Of a stretch of 64,000 nt of DNA, positions 11,807 through 20,477 are shown one piece after another (the stretch's first letter is position 1; every line of letters begins with the position of its first letter). Origin of the DNA: Candidatus Latescibacterota bacterium. Lineage in GTDB: Bacteria > Latescibacterota > UBA2968 > GCA-2709665. Below the pieces are notes generated by a model. That model did no database searches. It was not told the origin of the DNA and saw nothing but the letters and a program-made list of their open reading frames with translations. The translations under genes were made by a program, and so were the position numbers. The stretch covers positions 3,488,001 through 3,552,000 of the forward strand of contig OZ242180.1 in NCBI GenBank assembly GCA_965205485.1, given 5' to 3'.

Positions 11807-12754
11807 ATGAACACTTCGGTGAATATCTTCGGCGACTTTGGAAGGGTTTTGCGATCGGACGCGGTCTTGCACGCGATTCTTGACGCCGTGAATCAGACGG
11901 TAGAAATCACTTCAATCGCGAGCGACGTCGAGCTGTTCGTCCAGGAATACGGATTGAGAGCGGTCCATCTCAGGGGGTTGCATCGAGCGACAGGTCTGGT
12001 CGTCATCATAAAGGTCGGAACCAGCGCGCGAGAGAACTTCTGGTGTTCGGAACTTCATCGCCTTTGCCCGGACCTGGTCCCAAGAGTATACGCCTCAGGG
12101 TTCCTTCTAGGGGGAATTGACGTTCATTGGCTGGCATCGGAAGCCATTCCGTATGGACCTCTGGGGAATTCATGGAACGGCAGGGAGTTCGAGTTGATGC
12201 TCGATGCAGGGACTCGTTTCTATCAGCAGGCGAAGCGGATTGAAGACTCAACGCTGGACGTCACGTCGCGGGCCGAAGTTGCTCGCTGGCTGGAAGGAGC
12301 AATCCGGCAGCGCTGTCCGGGACCCGTCGACGGGCTTCTGTTGAGACTCGATGACCATTGGGAGTTTATCCTCGCGAAGTGTGGATCCGAAACCGCCTTC
12401 GAAGACTTTCACCTGTGCAATGGCCTGATGAGAGATCCGCCGCCGGACGGGGAGCGCGCGGTCCTGATCGATATCCACCCGAATCGCCGCCCGTGGATTC
12501 TGGATCCCGCGTATCTCCAGGTCTTGAATTCGGGGGACAGGAATCGACCCGGCCACAGGGACCTTGTCGCCAGAATGGCCGCAAAACGCCGCCAAGCGGG
12601 ACTCGCGAGCCTCGAGGGTTCAGACCTGGATACTGCAACAAAGATCGCGCTGGGCTGGATGGCCGCCCGGCAATGGCAACCTGAACGGGCGGATTGGGAG
12701 CCTGACTATCGCGAAGCATATCAAGGGTTCATTGCCGATGCCGTAGGAGTCTGA
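11807..12754 (+). CDS. Hypothetical protein, probable APH/kinase-like fold
   Basis: IIKV lysine, EDFHLCN Brenner-like motif, VLID; AAGGA RBS. Confidence 0.6.
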   Translation: MNTSVNIFGDFGRVLRSDAVLHAILDAVNQTVEITSIASDVELFVQEYGLRAVHLRGLHRATGLVVIIKVGTSARENFWCSELHRLCPDLVPRVYASGFLLGGIDVHWLASEAIPYGPLGNSWNGREFELMLDAGTRFYQQAKRIEDSTLDVTSRAEVARWLEGAIRQRCPGPVDGLLLRLDDHWEFILAKCGSETAFEDFHLCNGLMRDPPPDGERAVLIDIHPNRRPWILDPAYLQVLNSGDRNRPGHRDLVARMAAKRRQAGLASLEGSDLDTATKIALGWMAARQWQPERADWEPDYREAYQGFIADAVGV

Positions 12755-12784
12755 CTATCGGCGGAAGCGGTCCTTCAAAGAAGC

Positions 12785-12816
12785 CAGCCCCGTGTATAAC
12801 GACTGACACGGGGCTG
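12785..12816. terminator. Hairpin between convergent genes
   Basis: cagccccgtgt ... acacggggctg 11-bp stem followed by T-rich ttgatttgtcttt. Confidence 0.7.
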
Positions 12817-12849
12817 TTGATTTGTCTTTCCGCCGCCGGCGAGTGGACG

Positions 12850-15192
12850 CTAGAAGAAATACAGCTTGTAGTTCAGTTTCAGGCTGCGGCCGGTTTCGGG
12901 CATCACGGACCGGACGCGCGAAAGGTGGTTGCGGTATTCCGTGTCGAAAAGATTATCCAGGGAGAGGATCAGGCTGTGGCGGGCCTGATTCATGTGGAAA
13001 TCCCGCTGTACGTAAACGCCGAAGACCGAATAACCGTCGGTGGGATCCTCGTAGGTATCCACGCGTTCCTGCCCCGCGGCCCATTCCATGGTCCCTCCCC
13101 CGGTTAGCCAGTGGTGCCTGTAGGTTGCGCTGCCCACAAACTTGAGCGGCGGCATTTCCGGCAGGGGCATGCGGTCGTTCCGATTTTCGCCGCGCACATG
13201 ACTCAGTTTCATCTCCAGTTCCAGGCGTGCGTTCGGACGCCATTTCAGGTGGGATTCCACGCCCGTCATTCTCGCGTCTATACCTTCCGCGGCGTAGATG
13301 GGGAGTAGTTGGGCCCAGTTGATTTCTCCCGTATTTCGCGGCGCGATGTAATTGCCGAATTCATTCCAGAATCCCGTGAAGACCAGGTCGAATCCCGGCC
13401 GCAGGTAGTGCAGGAAGGCCTCGGCGCCGAAACTGCGTTCGGCGTTGAGCTCCACATTACCCTTCTCAAAGGTGTAAGCGGCCAGGTGTGGACCCTCGTT
13501 GTAGAGTTCCTCGATGGTGGGCGCGCGCTGGGAGCGGCTGAGGCTGAAGCCCGCTGTCAGTTGCTCTGTAATCGGTACGAGCGGGCTGAATGCCGCGGAC
13601 CACGCATGGAAGGTACGGTCTACGTCCAGCCTCTGGTTGGTAATCAACTGGCTGCGCGGGTCGAAGGCGGCATAGGCGTACCGGGCCGCGGCCTGCAGTT
13701 CGATATTGCGATAGATTGTCTCGTGATACAGACCGAAGTGGACGTCCTGCCTTCGCGTGGGCGGGGTGAAGACAAAACCACCCAGCTTGAGATTGCGGTG
13801 TTCGAAGCCTGCGGTGAGAACGGTGTTCTGCTCCCTGTTTCCCGAGTTCAGGTAGAGTTTGAGATCGCCGCTGTAGTCATGAAAAAGGAATTCGGATCCG
13901 ATGCTGCCGCTTGACTCGTACTCGACGTGGCGATAATAGGCCTTCGTGAAGCCCGCCTCGAATCTGTCTGCCGTTCTGCCGTCGAACCGGTAGACAACCT
14001 TTCCGTCGAAGACCCGGCGTATGATGTCGAGATCCGCGCCGTTGGGATGGGCGCCGATGAAGCCGCCCGGAATGCCATACTGAGTTTCGAATTGATCGAA
14101 GGAGCCGCCGACGTATCCCCGGTCGCCCGCGTAGGACGTGCCGAGAGTATATGTGCGGGTGTTGATGGGCGTATTGGCAAGGCGGCCAACCGGTGTCCGG
14201 ATGTCTCGGGTATCCCGGTAGGTGGTCTCGGCATACAACGCGAGCGGCCCCACGGGCGCGGTGAGAGCGGCGGACGAGAAATAACCCCGGTTCGCCGTTT
14301 CCCCGTAAGCGCCCACGCTCCCGAAGAAGCGCCCCGGTCGTATTTCTGGTATCTTGTGTTTGACGACGTTGATGACCCCGCCGCCGGCCGTGGACGTGTG
14401 CAGCAACGTGCGGGGCCCGCGGATGATTTCCAGGCGTTCCGCGTTGAAGGTTTCGACGGTGACCGCATGATCGGCCGACGTTGCGGAGAGATCCTGAGAC
14501 TGAATGCCGTCGACGTTGATCTGTACACGGTCGCCGCTGAGCCCGCGGATAACAGGCCGGGCGGGCGCCGGGCCCATGCTCCGGATGGCAACGCCGAGTT
14601 CGTTCTTCATGGTCTCGGCCAATGTGATGCTGTATTTCTTCCTGAGTTCGTCGCCCGAAAGCACACGGGTGGCCTCGTGCAGTTCCTCAAATAGGGTTTC
14701 AGCGCGTTTGGCCACAACGTCGATGGGGTCCAGCCTGTGGTCCAGCCGCGCCAGTTCCAGATAGACAACGGGGTGCTTCGCAGCCGAGATGTTCAGTTCC
14801 TGGCGCGTTTCAAGATAGCCGACGTGCGTCAGTGACAGGCTATGAATTCCCGGTGACAGATGAAGCACGAACCGGCCTTTTTCGTCCGTAGACGTGCCCG
14901 TGGTGTGATCCTCGGAATGGACGTTCACGTTCCTGATCGGCAGTCGGGTTTCGCCGTCGAAGACATACCCTTCGATCAACACGCCCTGATTTGCGGAACA
15001 GATTCCCGTCAGACATGCCATTGCCAAGAACGCGAGCGCCGCGCAGAAGATAGGAAACCGGAGCGGGGAACGACGGCTGGCGCCGTCGCGCGGGTAGGGG
15101 CCTTCCCTTCCACGACCGGAAAGGAATACCGCAAACAACGCCGCCGCTGCACCCAATTGACTGGATGTCTTCACTCTAAGTGTGCTGAACAT
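12850..15192 (-). CDS. TonB-dependent outer-membrane receptor, ZnuD-like, with N-terminal carboxypeptidase-regulatory-like domain
   Basis: Plug RPVIRGLSGDRV..SADHAV, EIIRGPRTLL, LYNEGPHLAAYTFEKGN, NLFDTEYRNH, C-terminal F; CAGGAG RBS before ATG 15192. Confidence 0.92.
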   Translation of the reverse strand: MFSTLRVKTSSQLGAAAALFAVFLSGRGREGPYPRDGASRRSPLRFPIFCAALAFLAMACLTGICSANQGVLIEGYVFDGETRLPIRNVNVHSEDHTTGTSTDEKGRFVLHLSPGIHSLSLTHVGYLETRQELNISAAKHPVVYLELARLDHRLDPIDVVAKRAETLFEELHEATRVLSGDELRKKYSITLAETMKNELGVAIRSMGPAPARPVIRGLSGDRVQINVDGIQSQDLSATSADHAVTVETFNAERLEIIRGPRTLLHTSTAGGGVINVVKHKIPEIRPGRFFGSVGAYGETANRGYFSSAALTAPVGPLALYAETTYRDTRDIRTPVGRLANTPINTRTYTLGTSYAGDRGYVGGSFDQFETQYGIPGGFIGAHPNGADLDIIRRVFDGKVVYRFDGRTADRFEAGFTKAYYRHVEYESSGSIGSEFLFHDYSGDLKLYLNSGNREQNTVLTAGFEHRNLKLGGFVFTPPTRRQDVHFGLYHETIYRNIELQAAARYAYAAFDPRSQLITNQRLDVDRTFHAWSAAFSPLVPITEQLTAGFSLSRSQRAPTIEELYNEGPHLAAYTFEKGNVELNAERSFGAEAFLHYLRPGFDLVFTGFWNEFGNYIAPRNTGEINWAQLLPIYAAEGIDARMTGVESHLKWRPNARLELEMKLSHVRGENRNDRMPLPEMPPLKFVGSATYRHHWLTGGGTMEWAAGQERVDTYEDPTDGYSVFGVYVQRDFHMNQARHSLILSLDNLFDTEYRNHLSRVRSVMPETGRSLKLNYKLYFF

Positions 15193-15649
15193 AATTGTTC
15201 TCCTGTGTACCGGAATCTCACTTCGTCCCGAAACGCGCGTGAGCATCCGCCGACGCGGTGGACGAACTGCGGATTTGCCGGTATGATGGCGAAATGTCAA
15301 GTTGCCAGGCCGCTTGCCCGCCATTGCGGACGTATCCTGCACCGGAGAGGGGCGGGATTGCATTTTGCCCAATCCCGAGAGTCTACCTGCGTGCAGAACC
15401 GAGCCACACTTCTGCACGCGCGGATTAGCAGCCCGTTGACAAAGTCCATCCGGCCTACGGCCGGCCCTTGCGGCCGAAATACCGCGTTGCGCTCCCTCGC
15501 CGAATCGAGGGATGGGACTCGGTCGCGCGCCTTGTCTTCGACCACAATGGCTCGGCCTCGCCTGCAGAGCGATTTTATCAACGGACTGTTAGAGCCAGTG
15601 CCGACCTGGAACGAACTGTTTGAAAAAACCTGGAAGTACGGAAGACGTG
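15193..15649 (-). promoter_or_regulatory. Long 5' leader (copy 1) between RAPP leader peptide and TonB-dependent receptor
   Basis: Colinear paralogue of 17535-18165; 54-nt block 15368-15421 differs from 17696-17749 at one base and contains a 10-bp stem. Confidence 0.7.
15429..15588. mobile_element. 160-bp MITE with TTAG target duplication
   Basis: TIRs cagcccgttgacaaagtc / gattttatcaacggactg; TTAG on both sides; absent from the paralogous site near 17750. Confidence 0.8.
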
Positions 15650-15964
15650 TCAAGAAGACACGTGAGACACGGGAGGTGCGCGTCCGTCGGGCAGAAGGAG
15701 GGAAGAGCGAGATGAACGAATCGAGGAAAAGCCCTGCCTGATATACAGAAAGCAAAGTTGCAGCACGAGCACTGCCGGCGGAATGATGCTCAGGTTGCTG
15801 AACCAGGCGCAGACGGCACACTGTTGTTCGTGATCGTGACATGGTTGACCGTGATCGTGATCGTGTTCGGGGAAGACGGCAAGCAGGAATACCGCCAGGT
15901 AGGCCGCGAATATCACGAGCGCGATAACAACAACCGGATGAATCCGTCCGGAGGAAAAAGACAT
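15650..15964 (-). CDS. DUF2946-like leader peptide 1 (signal/TM segment, His cluster, CxxC, RAPP)
   Basis: 104 aa: hydrophobic N-terminus, HDHDHGQPCHDHEQQCAVCA, C-terminal DGRAPPVS; GGAG upstream; paralogue at 18166-18477. Confidence 0.85.
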   Translation of the reverse strand: MSFSSGRIHPVVVIALVIFAAYLAVFLLAVFPEHDHDHGQPCHDHEQQCAVCAWFSNLSIIPPAVLVLQLCFLYIRQGFSSIRSSRSSLLLPDGRAPPVSHVSS

Positions 15965-16268
15965 CCTGCGGTCTCCAGATAAGCGCAAACGAACCTGGTT
16001 ACAGCCATGAACACACTGGCAACGTAACCTCCGAACCCATCCCTTTCGTCCCACAGGACGTCGCACCGGCCTGGCTCGGGTGATCTCGTGCCAGAACCCG
16101 GACCTGCCGGCCCGGCAGGTGGTAAATCGTGAGGTCGGCCTGCCGGGGCTCAGGGATCATACGGACAATCTCGGCAGAAGCTTTATCCTGTACACGTCAG
16201 TCATCTGCAATGTGCTCCGACCTTGCAGACGGAGGGAGGGCGAGAAAACCCTCCCGCAGCGTTTTCTG

Positions 16269-17534
16269 CTACGGCGCGGTGATCGCCACCGAAATGGGCG
16301 CGAATTCGTCCTCCGCCTCGCCGTCGTGGAAAATGGAAAGTGTAATGGTGGTCGTGCCCGCTTTCTTGCCGATGAGTCTGAAGGCCCAGTATTCGGGGGC
16401 AACAGGCGGATCGATTGCGAGCAGCGCGGTGTCGGCCACCGCGATGCCCAGCGTGCGATCGGGCGCTTCCGGCTGAAATTCCACGTCGTGTTCGTCAAAG
16501 AAGAACGTCGCGACGTGGTCGGTTGTGTCGCCTGCGGCAACGGCAAGGGCCTCGGTGGCTTCGCCTTCTCCCTTAACGGGCGCCTGTGTAAGCAACTCGC
16601 CGCTGTCTTCTTCCTTAAGCCGAACGCCCACGGGTTCGCCGTGCTGTCCCTCCCGTGACTCCACGTGTACAGGAATGGGCCGTGTACGGTAGTCAACGTG
16701 CCCTTCGTGCCAGACTTCAAATACAATCGTGGTTTCGCCTTCCTGCAAGCCGCGCAGGTGAAACTCGAATGTACCCTCGTCGCCCTCGTCCTGAACGACT
16801 TCGAGAACGTCGGGGTTGGCAATGGTCCAGCCGAACGTGAATTCGGGATCGTCCGGCGGGTCTTTTTCATCGCCGTGTTCGTCCAGAAACATGATGCGCC
16901 AGTGAGGCGTCAGGCCAATCGGGGCCGTGAGTTCCGATGCCCGACCTTCGCCCGAGTCGATCTCGCCCTGGTAATAGCGAAAGAATCGAACGCCGGATTC
17001 GATGATGACAAGCCCTTCCGCATTGAAGTGGGACGAGTGCTCTTCTACCACGTATACCGGGAGCGGTACCGTGGTGAAGTCGATGTGCCCTTCGTGCGAA
17101 ATCTGAAGCTTGATGGTGGTTTCGCCATCTTCAAGGCCGCGCAGGGCGAAGACGAATTTACCCGCTTCCCCCGCGTCCTGGACGACCTCCACGATCGACG
17201 TGTCCGCAATCTCCCACGTGAAACTGAAGCCCTCGCCGGAGGGGGGCGCCATTTCGTTTCCGTCTTTGTCCAGGAAGCGGATGCTCCACTTGCTGGTGAC
17301 TTCGCCGTGAGCGACCGCCAGGATTTCCGCCCGACCTTCGCCCGCGTCGATCCTGCCCTGGAAATAACGAAAGAAACGCTCGCCGGAGTCGACGAGGACC
17401 AGGCCTTCGGCTTCGTAATGCTCTTCCTGTTGAGTGATGGGGCCTTCTTTACCACAACCGGACGCGAACACGGCAAAAACCGCCGCCGTCACAATCCAGC
17501 GAAGGGATGTTTTCAACTTCAGCATGCTGATCAT
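16269..17534 (-). CDS. Acidic lipoprotein with three tandem beta-rich repeats carrying His motifs
   Basis: Lipobox FASGC; repeats start HYEAEG / HFNAEG / HGEPVG and end HEGHIDF / HEGHVDY / HDGEAED. Confidence 0.85.
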   Translation of the reverse strand: MISMLKLKTSLRWIVTAAVFAVFASGCGKEGPITQQEEHYEAEGLVLVDSGERFFRYFQGRIDAGEGRAEILAVAHGEVTSKWSIRFLDKDGNEMAPPSGEGFSFTWEIADTSIVEVVQDAGEAGKFVFALRGLEDGETTIKLQISHEGHIDFTTVPLPVYVVEEHSSHFNAEGLVIIESGVRFFRYYQGEIDSGEGRASELTAPIGLTPHWRIMFLDEHGDEKDPPDDPEFTFGWTIANPDVLEVVQDEGDEGTFEFHLRGLQEGETTIVFEVWHEGHVDYRTRPIPVHVESREGQHGEPVGVRLKEEDSGELLTQAPVKGEGEATEALAVAAGDTTDHVATFFFDEHDVEFQPEAPDRTLGIAVADTALLAIDPPVAPEYWAFRLIGKKAGTTTITLSIFHDGEAEDEFAPISVAITAP

Positions 17535-17801
17535 TATTCAATTCCTGTGTACTCGAGTCTCACTTCGCCCAGAAGGCGCATGAAACTCTGCCTGTGTGGC
17601 ATACGAACTGCGGTTGTGCCGGCAGGCAAATCCGCCGGGCCGGTCATCTGGCGTTGCGGATGTAGCCTGACCCGGAGAGGGCGCGAATGCACGCACCCAA
17701 TCCCGAGAGTCTACCCGCGTGCAGAACCGAGCCACACTTCTGCACGCGCAGTTCGAGCCAGGGCCGACCTGGAACGACCCGATTGAAAAAACCTGGAAGC
17801 A

Positions 17802-17965
17802 AGAAGCTGTTTTAAAATTACCGGTGAGTTCCCGAGCGCGAGCGAAAAAGTGGCGGTCAAGGCGGGAAAATCCGCCCATATTTGTCTATACGGGTGGATT
17901 TGACCAACGCCGACCGGCACTTTTGCAGCCGTGCGAAGACCGCTGGGAATTTTAAGACAGCTTCT
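17802..17965. mobile_element. ~164-bp MITE
   Basis: TIRs agaagctgttttaaaatt / aattttaagacagcttct (17/18); absent from the paralogous site near 15638; target duplication ambiguous. Confidence 0.75.
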
Positions 17966-17994
17966 AAGGAGGACGTGTCAGGAAGACACGCCAG

Positions 17995-18155
17995 TGTTCT
18001 GTCCCGGAAATAAGTTGCCTGAATTCGACCGCTGAGTCGCCCGGCTCGCGAGGCGCCGGAGCGCAGGCGACCTGCGTATGGTCGGCGAGCGACGGGAACG
18101 TAGCGATACGGGATGAATCGGCGGTCGAATGGTGAGGAATTTCTGGGACAGGACA
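17995..18155. mobile_element. 161-bp MITE with CCAG target duplication
   Basis: TIRs tgttctgtcccggaaat / atttctgggacaggaca; CCAG at 17991-17994 and 18156-18159. Confidence 0.8.
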
Positions 18156-18165
18156 CCAGGTTGGA

Positions 18166-18477
18166 TCAGGACACGGGAGGTGCGCGTCCGTCTGGCAGAA
18201 GGAGGGAAGTGCGCGGGGAATGGAACGAGAAAAAACCCTGCCTGAAATACAGAAAGCAAAGCTGCAGCACGAGCACTGCCAGCAGAATGATGCTCAGGTT
18301 GCCGAACCAGGCGCAGACGGCACATTGTGGATCATGACATTGCTGATCATGATCGTGACATGGGTGTTCGTGATCGTGACCGGCGAAGGCGGCAAGTAGA
18401 AAAACCGCAAGGTAGCCCGCGAATATTGCAAGGGCGAAAACGACAACCGGATGAAGCCGTCTGAAGGGCGAAAACAT
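18166..18477 (-). CDS. DUF2946-like leader peptide 2 (signal/TM segment, His cluster, CxxC, RAPP)
   Basis: 103 aa: HDHEHPCHDHDQQCHDPQCAVCA, C-terminal DGRAPPVS-stop; GGAGAAGG RBS. Confidence 0.85.
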   Translation of the reverse strand: MFSPFRRLHPVVVFALAIFAGYLAVFLLAAFAGHDHEHPCHDHDQQCHDPQCAVCAWFGNLSIILLAVLVLQLCFLYFRQGFFSFHSPRTSLLLPDGRAPPVS

Positions 18478-18524
18478 CCTTACCTTCTCCGGAAGAACAA
18501 AGAACTTACAGGAATTCAATTCGT

Positions 18525-18553
18525 AGTATACACGAAACGATCGGCTTCGTCAA
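18525..18553 (-). promoter_or_regulatory. Sigma70-type promoter for the metal-uptake locus
   Basis: TTGACG-17 nt-TATACT on the minus strand, just upstream of ATG 18477. Confidence 0.7.
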
Positions 18554-18639
18554 GTAGCCGGAAGCCGGAAAGCAGCCGCAAAAATGGCGCCGCACTCGGG
18601 GAATTGACCTTGACACCTGATTCGTACCTGCGTATATGA

Positions 18640-18790
18640 GTGTGATTCCTCACGTTTTTATATGGCAACGATGCGGCTGGTGACGACGCGGCCGAAGTCG
18701 GACTGTTTGCACTTGATAATCCTGCCGCAGACCTGGCGTCCGAAGCGGATCGAAAGATAATCGCCAATCTGAACGTGCTATTTGCAATGT
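18640..18790 (+). pseudogene. NUDIX hydrolase C-terminal remnant
   Basis: One frame reads AGDDAAEVGLFALDN..LASEADRKII, like NUDIX C-termini; no start codon or Nudix box. Confidence 0.4.
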
Positions 18791-18800
18791 GCCAAAGACG

Positions 18801-19669
18801 ATGCCCTACACATTTATAAACGGCTTCCGTATGTTCTATGACGTGCGCGGGGAAGGCGAAGTCATCGTGTTCGTACACGGTGGATTTCCTTCGCTCGACA
18901 TGCATCTCCGCGCCGATCCGGGAGGCGGGTGGGGATGGGAGATGGATTTCACGTCGGAATTCCGGTATGTGATGTACGATCGCCGGGGCTGCTGGCTGTC
19001 TTCCCGCCCGGAGTCGGGCTATGACCTGGAGAACCAGGCGCGCGACCTGGTCGAATTGCTGGACCACCTCGATATCGAATGCGCGCACGTCATCGGTTCC
19101 TCCGCCGGGGGTCCAATAGCGATCCTCTTTGCAACGCTTTTCCCGGAGCGTGTCAGGACACTGGTATTGGCCGGAACCGCGGCGCATCTCTGGCCGGACG
19201 AAGATCCGGTTACCCGGATTGTCAAGAAACAGTTGGAAATCCTTTATAAACAGGGAGCTGAGCCTGCCTGGACGTGCCGGCCCGATGGTGTCGAACTCTC
19301 TCTCGACGTCCTCTGGGAACGCGACGAGATGGAGGAACGGGGAACGCTGGCGGAATACGACGAGCGAGTCAGCAGGCTTGTGGCGAAGTCCAGCCTGGAG
19401 GATCGCGAGGCGTGGTACGAGACCCAGTTGAGGTCGATCGACGCGTACATTGACAGAGATCTGTCTGTCGAATGCGAACGCGTGCGGGCGCCAACGCTTG
19501 TCGTTCACGGCGCAAGGGACCGGGAAGTACCGGTGGATTGGGGCAGGGATCTGGCAGCGAAGGTCCCCGGCGCCGAGTTCAGGTTGTATAAGACGAACCT
19601 CACAGCATAGTCCACGGAAGTCGTCGGGTGCGTGAAGACCTGATGGCGTTTATTCGAAGCGCGGATTAA
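18801..19669 (+). CDS. Alpha/beta hydrolase with apparent 1-base deletion near 19592
   Basis: FVHGG, YDRRG, GSSAGG, HGARD; the His segment (DEPHSIV..LMAFIRS) lies in another frame ending at TAA 19669. Confidence 0.8.
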
Positions 19670-19736
19670 TGAATGCGTGAACCGTCGATACGCAGGCTGA
19701 TCCGTTCACTTTCTTCGATCGGGCACGAAAGACAAA

Positions 19737-20477
19737 ATGGGCAGGGACAATCTCAGATTTCTGTTTCTTGACGTCGACGGCGTGATCCTCGACAACGCCA
19801 TGTGGGAAACGGAGAGCAGCAGGCTCGTCGGCGCCGCGTTCAGCGAATTGCTCGGTGGCGACGCTGACGTGTGGGCTGAGCACCAGGAACGGCTGTGGTT
19901 GCGGGTATGGAACCGGGGAAGCGAAGAATACACGGAGGCGCTGGGTCTGCGAAGGCTGAATCTGTCAAGATGGTGGGATCGACTGCATGCCGAATGGGTT
20001 CTGCAACTGTGTGACGAAGTTGGCGTGGAAGCGCCCCGCACCTTCGAAGAACGGGTCGACGTTGCCGAACGCGCATTCACCAACGTTTATCTGAACACCA
20101 GGGCCGTCTTTGCGGGCGCCGGATCGGCCATCGAGGCGCTGGCGAAAGACTTCGAGATCCATACCGCGTCCGGCAACCCGTCATGGGTGATAGAGACCCT
20201 GCTGACGGGCATGGGTATTCGTGAACTGATAGGCAGGCCGTTCGGGTCCGATCTGGTCGGCTTTCAGAAGGGGCACAGGACCTTTCACGCTCGCATCCTG
20301 AACGAAGTCGGGGCCAGGCCTCAAGAATCGATCGTCGTGGATGATCACGAAATGCCGCTTCTGGCCGCCGGGAAGCTCGGCGCAAAGACGGTCAGAGTGG
20401 GGCGCGCCGGATCAGGTGAATTCGACCTCACAATCGAATCGCTGTCCGATTTGCCAGACGCCATATCTGCCCTTTGA
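19737..20477 (+). CDS. HAD family hydrolase
   Basis: FLDVDGV motif I, ASGN, K, VVDD. Confidence 0.88.
   Translation: MGRDNLRFLFLDVDGVILDNAMWETESSRLVGAAFSELLGGDADVWAEHQERLWLRVWNRGSEEYTEALGLRRLNLSRWWDRLHAEWVLQLCDEVGVEAPRTFEERVDVAERAFTNVYLNTRAVFAGAGSAIEALAKDFEIHTASGNPSWVIETLLTGMGIRELIGRPFGSDLVGFQKGHRTFHARILNEVGARPQESIVVDDHEMPLLAAGKLGAKTVRVGRAGSGEFDLTIESLSDLPDAISAL

Follow-up and report, generated by a model that had tools for sequence, protein, structure and literature searches.

The closest described relatives of the locus reported here are leader peptides that respond to copper. In Bordetella pertussis, the leader CruR (Bp2923) of the operon cruR-bfrG-bp2921 arrests its ribosome at an RAPP motif when copper is low, which keeps Rho off a C>G bubble; copper relieves the arrest, and translation of the leader is needed for downstream expression (PMC9426467). 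The arrest at RAPP has been demonstrated in vitro by toeprint (PMC12992588), and the criterion given for CruR proteins is that CxxC and RAPP lie 45 residues apart, give or take 1-2 (PMC9426467). CutF of Rhodobacter capsulatus stalls with Cu and melts a hairpin over the next Shine-Dalgarno sequence (SD), and a survey of 5,334 'CutF-like' proteins reports Cys/His motifs, TonB-like neighbours and non-copper cases (PMC9973294; bioRxiv 10.1101/2025.02.05.636593). Upstream open reading frames (uORFs) with RAPP or RGPP before TonB-dependent receptors, nearly all with signal sequences, are described as occurring 'universally' in Gram-negative bacteria, in an article whose passages on them name no zinc-specific or tandem case (PMC12992588). 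Here we describe two such leaders in one locus (12850..18553, minus strand), ahead of a lipoprotein and a ZnuD-like TonB-dependent receptor. The window, that is, the whole stretch of DNA analysed, comprises 64,000 nucleotides (nt) of a Candidatus Latescibacterota genome (assembly GCA_965205485.1, contig OZ242180.1, positions 3,488,001 to 3,552,000). The locus is likely a zinc-flavoured variant of the known CruR-type switch, doubled by duplication. We give about an even chance to a reading, drawn from the analyses below, in which both leaders would stall at RAPP when zinc is scarce and thereby block Rho, with the lipoprotein passing one checkpoint and the receptor two.

Read along the minus strand, the locus consists of a promoter-like site, the upstream leader, 631 nt, the lipoprotein, 304 nt, the inner leader, 457 nt, the receptor and a terminator-like hairpin. 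The features that carry the argument are the following (window positions):

18525..18553, minus strand: sigma-70-type promoter TTGACG-17-TATACT, from a site scan and comparison across the genus
18166..18477, minus strand: upstream leader open reading frame (ORF), 103 aa, from its translation and a motif and hydropathy reading; hydrophobic segment at residues 11-29, six His, CxxC at 52-55 (18313-18324), second hydrophobic segment at 58-76, RAPP at 98-101 (18175-18186)
18158..18235, minus strand: C>G bubble (34 C, 12 G) spanning the final codons of the upstream leader, a possible loading site for Rho
17975..17989, minus strand: GTGTC-loop-GACAC hairpin, from a pattern comparison across leaders of the genus, candidate RNA-polymerase pause
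16269..17534, minus strand: lipoprotein, 421 aa, lipobox Cys27, three immunoglobulin (Ig)-like repeats with conserved His
15650..15964, minus strand: inner leader ORF, 104 aa, from its translation and a motif and hydropathy reading; hydrophobic segment at residues 12-30, five His, CxxC at 49-52 (15809-15820), RAPP at 95-98 (15671-15682)
15632..15709, minus strand: C>G bubble (34 C, 14 G) where the inner leader ends
15647-15661, minus strand: GTGTC/GACAC hairpin of the inner leader, here overlapping the stop
12850..15192, minus strand: ZnuD-like TonB-dependent receptor, 780 aa

Both leader ORFs named in the original prediction, which was made from the bare sequence, are present and intact at these positions, and their translations bear out the export-type segment, the CAVCA motif and the C-terminal DGRAPP that it had read in each. 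The upstream leader carries HDHEHPCHDHDQQCHD and CAVCA and ends in DGRAPPVS-stop, and the inner leader carries HDHDHGQPCHDH and CAVCA and ends in DGRAPPVSHVSS-stop; each has GGAG 8-9 nt ahead of its ATG. Both begin with basic residues and a hydrophobic stretch 19 residues long (mean hydropathy 2.75 and 3.08; helix predicted at 10-30; an export-type N-terminus), followed by a His patch, CAVCAW, a second hydrophobic stretch and DGRAPP. The interval from CxxC to RAPP is 42 residues in both. Two residues follow RAPP in the upstream leader and six in the inner one, where an 11-nt deletion, seen in independent contigs too, took out the usual stop and adds four residues. A structure prediction for the leader has low confidence (predicted local distance difference test, pLDDT, 63.5). 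The idea that each effector has an independent sensor did not hold, the two leaders being duplicates (75% identical in amino acids and 80-89% in nucleotides).

A profile of 37 leaders finds three matches (E<=1e-36) among 72,893 six-frame ORFs of the own genome. It finds homologues in 54 of 153 genomes of the phylum, the inner leader as a single query finds them in 29 of 61 genomes, and all 14 genus relatives have leaders. His34, both Cys, Trp, Arg and Pro-Pro are invariant across the aligned leaders (37/37 for His34, the Cys pair and Trp), and 102 of 106 distant relatives combine CxxC with a C-terminal R[AGS]PP, 41-46 residues apart. Between these motifs 82 of the 102 have a second hydrophobic segment, located here at 18253-18306 and 15740-15796, which, once the ribosome has arrested, would be inside the exit tunnel or just beyond it and may contribute to the pull. 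The predicted His cluster is present in both leaders but is no fixed feature: the count varies from 2 to 8 in the genus (2-4 for the majority of single-operon leaders, 4-8 for the window's locus), so that the size of the patch is, as far as the alignments tell, a variable repeat and not a family signature. The ratio of nonsynonymous to synonymous substitution rates (dN/dS) is 0.35 for six inner copies, 0.33 for six upstream copies and 0.28 for 13 other copies, and omega=1 is rejected for all three sets (twice the log-likelihood difference, 2dL, 14.5, 20.9 and 57.0). These ratios show the family of putative leader ORFs to be protein-coding. As proof of position-specific selection on the inner leader we rejected them; recombination between paralogues shapes the values, and the non-coding relic that adjoins the inner leader differs by 1.5-3% among the own genome (G000) and its relatives G006 and G010, at a leader dS of 0.16-0.32.

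TTGACG-17-TATACT is the sole minus-strand promoter-like site in 12000-20000. The scan of both strands gave 2 sites against 2.3 expected, which by itself is no evidence. Across the genus, TTGACG-17-TATA(C/T)T lies 74-77 nt ahead of 19 of 19 operon-leading leaders and ahead of none of six inner copies; the score is 10/12 in all 19 leading copies and at best 6/12 in all six inner ones. The single minus-strand promoter of the original prediction thus stands at the head of the locus, and the inner copy's promoter has been deleted. No U-tailed terminator was found between the two units by the terminator scan. Because there is one promoter and no such terminator, the two leaders would act in series if both copies work, and serial control by two leaders is plausible on this layout. 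Also as predicted, no obvious Fur/Zur box marks the promoter: a palindrome search found no AT-rich Fur/Zur-like palindrome in 18478-18790, nor at either leader promoter examined, and the same search did detect a Fur-box-like palindrome before the genome's other Fur-family operon. An Rfam scan of 12000-20000 at E<=5 gave zero matches, and therefore no known riboswitch. The junction from lipoprotein through spacer to inner leader is taken to be real because independent contigs spanning 15555-16305 and 15555-16392 match without differences (four runs, from at most two samples, possibly including the source sample). Contig joints that link both spacers were not counted as deletions; related strains and repeats account for them. 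Behind the receptor the locus ends with

12785..12816, minus strand: hairpin followed by a T-rich tail, terminator-like, with a 10-nt loop, read by eye and unlisted by the terminator scan

Beyond it, at 11807-12754, lies a convergent 315-aa gene with no Pfam or NCBIfam match, which is kept beside the locus in relatives (85-91% identical in nucleotides).

The metal that the leaders may read was judged from the receptor and from the neighbours of related leaders. The receptor's best solved relative is ZnuD (E 3.8e-35, against 8.4e-11 for the Cu receptor OprC). ZnuD NF038289 is also the best of 26 NCBIfam families (195.3 bits), and the copper-receptor model TIGR01778 gives 60 bits against 472. 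The high-affinity zinc site of ZnuD consists of D99, H100, E340 and H499 (PMC4557270); D241, H242 and H569 of the receptor align with D99, H100 and H499, with a numbering offset that stays constant, and none of the three varies among the 8 receptors aligned. The receptor was therefore rightly called ZnuD-like, with the best solved match, the best NCBIfam match and three of four zinc ligands in agreement. For the lipoprotein, structure prediction gives three Ig-like domains (pLDDT 84). The structure search returned generic Ig-like matches only (best Z 10.2, root-mean-square deviation 10.5 over 179 residues), from which we rejected any assignment of function, and the sequence search found no solved relative. 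Its context suggests a surface partner that would capture zinc for the receptor. Relatives of the lipoprotein have from one Ig-like repeat (about 162 aa) to about six (792 aa; L033:7307-9685, L042:5446-5940).

The neighbourhood scan covered 19 loci around more distant leaders and 55 hand-picked ORFs, three of them from the own genome. Downstream of these leaders lie a lipoprotein-receptor pair in ten loci and ZnuA-family and ABC-3 genes in four, and FolE2 is adjacent in two, a ZIP gene in one and COG0523 in three; upstream neighbours include COG0523 in G035 and DUF3299 in G047. FolE2, COG0523 and znuABC have been linked to zinc limitation (PMC2770081). Copper-specific families (multicopper oxidase, PCuAC, CopC, SCO) and HupE/UreJ were absent from the 55 ORFs. 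Together, the receptor ligands and the neighbours of related leaders make zinc the best-supported and most likely signal. The original prediction of Zn, Ni or Co rather than Cu holds as far as it excludes copper, with zinc most likely, but Ni and Co gain no support from the scanned neighbourhoods. Two further observations come from these loci. Between the leader and the ZnuA-family gene, four genomes encode a protein of about 400 aa with no Pfam match (L060:4129-5358, L061:5792-6961, L065:6598-7884, L069:3683-4957), a candidate zinc-uptake component judging by its position, and in two genera a chlorite-dismutase-family gene stands behind the zinc-type operon (L045:11412-12143, L060:7281-8012).

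The leaders could instead stand beside a zinc-type receptor and yet read another signal: a different metal (Cu, Ni, Co or Mn), the oxidation state of the CxxC pair, or Sec/YidC capacity. A CxxC motif binds several metals. The tested members of this kind, as far as the published accounts describe them, all respond to copper; the second hydrophobic segment of the 82 relatives could be pulled by membrane insertion; and one relative heads an efflux system of the resistance-nodulation-division (RND) type. Yet these alternatives do not explain the repeated association with ZnuA/ABC-3, ZIP, FolE2 and COG0523, nor the lack of copper-specific or HupE/UreJ families in the hand-picked set, and His34, both Cys and Trp are invariant in every aligned leader. 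We consider a signal other than zinc rather unlikely.

The genome also has two Fur-family genes. One sits in a znu-cobW cluster (G000:C1:2746412-2754848; L057, L078, L079) together with ABC-3, ZnuA-family and COG0523 genes, and we take it to be Zur-like by its sequence features. An orthologue of it was detected in 6 of 22 family genomes, the same clade that has the doubled leader locus, and the leader is present in many genomes where no such orthologue was detected. The second Fur-family gene, preceded by a Fur-box-like palindrome, leads an operon with a TonB-dependent receptor and a COG0523 gene (G000:C1:847588-854200; L077).

How a stalled leader would affect the genes behind it can be considered from the RNA. 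The rho gene is present in the genome. Along the 5.7-kb transcript, C exceeds G most strongly at the two leader ends and in an insertion element, M1, behind the first; these three windows rank at the 99.6-99.8th percentile of genome windows (99.84th for the bubble of the upstream leader). All 25 genus copies have more C than G in the 60 non-coding nt that follow the stop, and 16 of the 25 reach the 5% tail set by ordinary genes or go beyond it; among the copies of the sister family (f2) none of 12 lies within that tail. A GTGTC/GACAC hairpin follows 22 of the 25 genus leaders, normally 14 nt past the stop. Its stem is nearly invariant and hence has no support from covariation; in the 300-nt core spacer as a whole the RNAalifold covariation term is about 0, and the short hairpin alone is conserved, with no compensatory changes. 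Where the upstream leader has been lost or frameshifted before an intact lipoprotein (G014, G009, L083), the hairpin segment has been deleted too, in three of three cases. One would predict this if a transcript is lost in the spacer whenever no ribosome stands on it, although three cases are few.

Translational control of the CutF/SecM kind would work differently: the last codons of the leader would pair with the next SD, a stall would free it, and the two leaders would act in parallel. Consensus folding does pair the Pro-Val-Ser-stop codons with the downstream SD, and the sister family has a helix of 11-18 bp between the last codons plus stop and the SD of the next gene (L045:4753-5200, L046, L047, L073-L076, L048:4855-5300; also G021). 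There the last residue alternates between Ser and Phe with pairing maintained, and the SD pairing probability is 0.83-1.0 in nine of nine copies with a correctly placed start, and 0.85-0.91 at the paralogous locus of the own genome. Measured against 300 SD regions of the own genome, a background richer in G+C than f2, the helix beats 95% of the background in 9 of 12 copies of the sister family, in none of 24 in the window's genus and in 1 of 11 elsewhere. The pairing energies of the window copies, -10.9 and -14.2 kcal/mol, do not surpass those of unrelated SD regions; the pairing probabilities are 0.11 and 0.01, and simulated stalling leaves the openness of the SD unchanged (0.66 to 0.67, and 0.44 to 0.42). 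We rejected long-range anti-SD pairing in the window copies on these three comparisons. The spacers are also long (631 and 457 nt), and even in the sister family simulated stalling opens the SD only modestly, to 0.03-0.29. Control of one leader's SD by another in G021, G045, G048 and G002 was not supported. For the window, translational control thus appears very unlikely, and the same sensor appears, from these foldings, to use another output in the sister family than in the window's genus. Since none of the 24 genus copies gave an anti-SD helix that a stall would release, a CruR-like Rho attenuator is our best guess.

The intervals called untranslated regions in the original prediction are present as spacers, but in addition they carry three multi-copy insertion elements:

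17991..18157: insertion element M1, about 167 nt, with terminal inverted repeats, directly 3' of the upstream-leader stop
17801..17966: insertion element M2, about 165 nt, with 21-nt terminal inverted repeats
17535..17800, minus strand: core intergenic sequence and lipoprotein ribosome-binding site, from identity to the paralogous locus and the inner copy
15425..15592: insertion element M3, about 168 nt
15193..15424, minus strand: second core intergenic copy and ribosome-binding site

M1, M2 and M3 are mutually unrelated elements of about 165 nt with terminal inverted repeats, similar to miniature inverted-repeat transposable elements, and the genome has 40, 92 and 58 near-full-length copies of them. 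In one run, a contig joint bypasses M2. M1 is missing from the paralogous locus, and its first half is rich in C (33 C, 12 G). In several relatives an element of its type directly follows the leader stop, each time oriented so that the C-rich half is presented, possibly through shared descent or conversion. With the elements removed, both spacers match a core of about 315 nt; 17535-17800 shows about 77% identity with the paralogous locus and 72-75% with the inner copy.

The paralogous locus, the third match in the genome, is an intact one-leader operon (G000:2128721-2124536) with promoter, leader, 314-nt spacer, lipoprotein and receptor, the last two each 87% identical to those of the window. 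Comparison with it explains the interval between the lipoprotein and the inner leader, which contains

16174..16268, minus strand: remnant of the spacer that ancestrally led from lipoprotein to receptor, and of the former receptor start, from identity to the paralogous locus
16230-16257, minus strand: GC hairpin inside this remnant, with no U tract
16007..16158, minus strand: relic of the 3' end of a 5'-nucleotidase gene, the duplication junction, from identity to the gene preceding the paralogous locus

The first part of the 304 nt matches the paralogue's lipoprotein-to-receptor spacer and old receptor start (84% over 96 nt), and what follows is 78% identical over 154 nt to the 3' end of the gene found ahead of the paralogous operon, a 5'-nucleotidase identified through its orthologue in L037. 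The interval is, on this comparison, the junction of a tandem duplication, and the promoter that came after it has been deleted. The first 32 or so residues of the receptor stem from the N-terminus of the lipoprotein, and the lipobox Cys is gone in all five such chimeras translated; given this chimeric start, a second lipoprotein gene must have been deleted.

Relatives show other states of the locus. G010 has leader-lipoprotein-leader-lipoprotein-receptor, as has G014 with a frameshifted first leader, while the window's layout recurs in G006 and on one G005 contig. Lipoprotein-free forms are leader-leader-receptor (G002) and leader-receptor (G004), and G009 and L083 have decayed forms. A survey covered 53 lipoprotein loci, mostly from Candidatus Latescibacterota with some from Gemmatimonadota or uncultured bacteria and one from Ignavibacteriaceae. 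Of these, 47 have an intact or weak upstream leader match and 28 are plain leader-lipoprotein-receptor loci; the window's order is found again in relatives, but only 2 of the 53 have it. Identity to G006 and G010 swings between 83% and 100% along the locus and inner copies group with upstream copies in the leader tree, which indicates that paralogues exchange sequence. In 17 of the 54 leader-bearing genomes, two leaders stand on the same strand no more than 5 kb apart, in at least four layouts: that of the window, whole-operon duplicates in genus g6 (8/21), adjacent unlike leaders (G045, G048), and G021. Serial leaders therefore recur; related genomes are not independent, and most cases are duplications. 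Adjacent unlike pairs before one operon are found in G048, G045, G092 and G021 (L060:3397-4084, L069:4986-5664, L059:733-1591, L048:4151-5148). The gap between the leaders of G021 resembles, by eye, a broken MerC-type frame, and MerC-domain genes lie near leaders in four other loci.

Given this history, the inner leader could be a duplication relic with no real control, the receptor being hardly expressed or the leader and spacer uncoupled, so that only the upstream leader, or neither, regulates. The intact one-leader operon could do the job with its 87% identical proteins, the locus is unstable in the genus, its sequence is a recombination patchwork, and the inner leader has its 11-nt deletion. 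CxxC and RAPP are nevertheless intact in six of seven inner copies, the C>G bubble and the hairpin are still there, and the receptor is intact and relies on the duplicated ribosome-binding site. The loss of the lipobox Cys in 5/5 chimeric starts also suggests expression from that site, now or formerly. We think such a relic unlikely. The inner leader was probably kept since the receptor is not expressible behind its spacer without a leader, and not through selection for a cascade; in G009, whose inner leader stops prematurely, the receptor is broken as well. The two-stage serial cascade of the original prediction retains its single promoter and the deleted inner promoter, but a selected cascade is not established; the locus arose by duplication and deletion and is a mosaic from recombination between paralogues. 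From the comparisons above, the doubling is likely a by-product of duplication in an unstable accessory locus and not a purpose-built cascade.

Returning to serial Rho attenuation under zinc control, the steps could be as follows. With a single promoter, the inner promoter deleted and no U-tailed terminator between the units, the layout points to one transcript. The nascent leader would enter the Sec pathway and arrest with Pro-Pro in the P and A sites, as suggested by CruR. The His patch and CxxC would then lie about 45 residues from the arrest point, where binding of Zn may fold or pull the chain and free the ribosome. C-rich RNA at and behind the stop would now be open to Rho, and the polymerase, possibly paused at the GTGTC/GACAC hairpin, would terminate in the spacer. 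The serial layout itself arose, as the comparison shows, when a leader-spacer-lipoprotein unit was duplicated and the second lipoprotein gene was then deleted. If both copies work, the inner leader would have to be kept because of its own spacer, and its presence does not prove that a cascade is advantageous. A wider proposal, tentative and in our view possible more than probable, is that the His-rich CxxC/RAPP peptide is the native zinc sensor of these Latescibacterota, with two output modules, an anti-SD helix in one family and a Rho attenuator in the window's genus, and, in the window, serial attenuators that make receptor expression roughly the square of that of the lipoprotein.

Several points weigh against the proposed scheme. 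The coding part of the C>G bubbles is mostly a matter of Pro, Ser and Leu codons (synonymous resampling, p 0.26 and 0.07), and this control weakens the bubble as independent proof of a Rho utilization (rut) site. The post-stop bias is weak in the inner copy (17% tail), three insertions disturb the spacers, the inner copy has no normal stop, and its dN/dS below 1 (0.35) is confounded by gene conversion. A hidden Markov model search placed both leaders, which the original prediction had related to DUF2946, under the cut-off of DUF2946/PF11162 (12.0 bits for the upstream and 17.5 for the inner leader, against 23.7). Overall 23 of 37 family members match this profile weakly (best E 1.1e-4) and 1 of 59 distant relatives passes the cut-off, which places the leader group at the apparent edge of the DUF2946 family. 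On the side of the metal, the receptor's 195 bits are far under the 950-bit cut-off of the ZnuD model, and the counterpart of ZnuD Glu340 was not placed, alignments of the E340 region giving only chance matches (E>0.5). The Pfam families of ZnuA and ABC-3 cover Mn and Fe systems as well. A weaker, distant leader homologue (G072, L071:4-2640) precedes an outer-membrane efflux protein and a CusB/CzcB-type adaptor. The family thus has no fixed sign of control and may also govern export, with the opposite sign.

Metal-gated arrest peptides have so far been shown for copper only in the literature that we found, and no riboswitch is known for Cu or Zn according to PMC9426467. We found no zinc-responsive or tandem RAPP leader in the literature, although the supplements of the surveys may list such loci, and the first half of PMC11672702 mentions no such case. 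If the leaders are zinc-gated, they would sense zinc independently of Zur and would provide a test of metal-induced folding as the pull out of arrest. If both the zinc reading and the serial attenuators are true, the locus would hold the first ribosome-arrest switch gated by zinc, and a two-stage cascade that occurs in nature. The lineage offers natural variants: the number of His ranges from 2 to 8, leaders come singly or in pairs, the anti-SD is kept in some and lost in others, and some leaders are deleted together with the attenuator. The doubling in the window is less weighty than the original prediction held, being a by-product of duplication at an accessory locus that is itself unstable. 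It is still a ready-made construct for asking whether serial arrest attenuators multiply.

Compared with the described systems, the anatomy is CruR/CutF-like as had been proposed, with an export-type N-terminus, CxxC, a C-terminal RAPP and a long downstream spacer. The CxxC attributed to CutF was an error, the motif of CutF being CxxxC (PMC9973294). CutF also has a Cu-induced stall, a detoxifying oxidase as its target and a stem that shields the SD, whereas the window has CxxC, an importer as the target and no supported stem in its two copies, the sister family having one. Like the CutF-like set, the window leaders are shorter than 150 aa, have PP within the last 15 residues and are followed by a same-strand gene within 1,000 nt. 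The receptor resembles ZnuD of Neisseria meningitidis (PDB 4rdr; NF038289) in keeping the equivalents of D99, H100 and H499, and differs from it in an extra N-terminal carboxypeptidase-regulatory-like domain and in the lack of a Zur box at the promoter. Closest is CruR, with which the locus shares a small export-type leader, CxxC, a C-terminal RAPP, the C>G bubble at the end of the leader, a long spacer, a TonB-dependent importer and rho. Two departures count against the kinship: the window leaders fall under the Pfam cut-off, and they have 42 instead of 45 residues between the motifs. Unlike CruR, they add a His patch and a second hydrophobic segment, and their targets are of the zinc and not the copper type. 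The CruR trait of a first gene with a long spacer is found in the upstream leader (first, 631 nt) and partly in the inner one (457 nt, third in the operon). Also unlike CruR, the window's operon includes a lipoprotein gene and has two serial copies of the leader, the inner one standing outside the first position.

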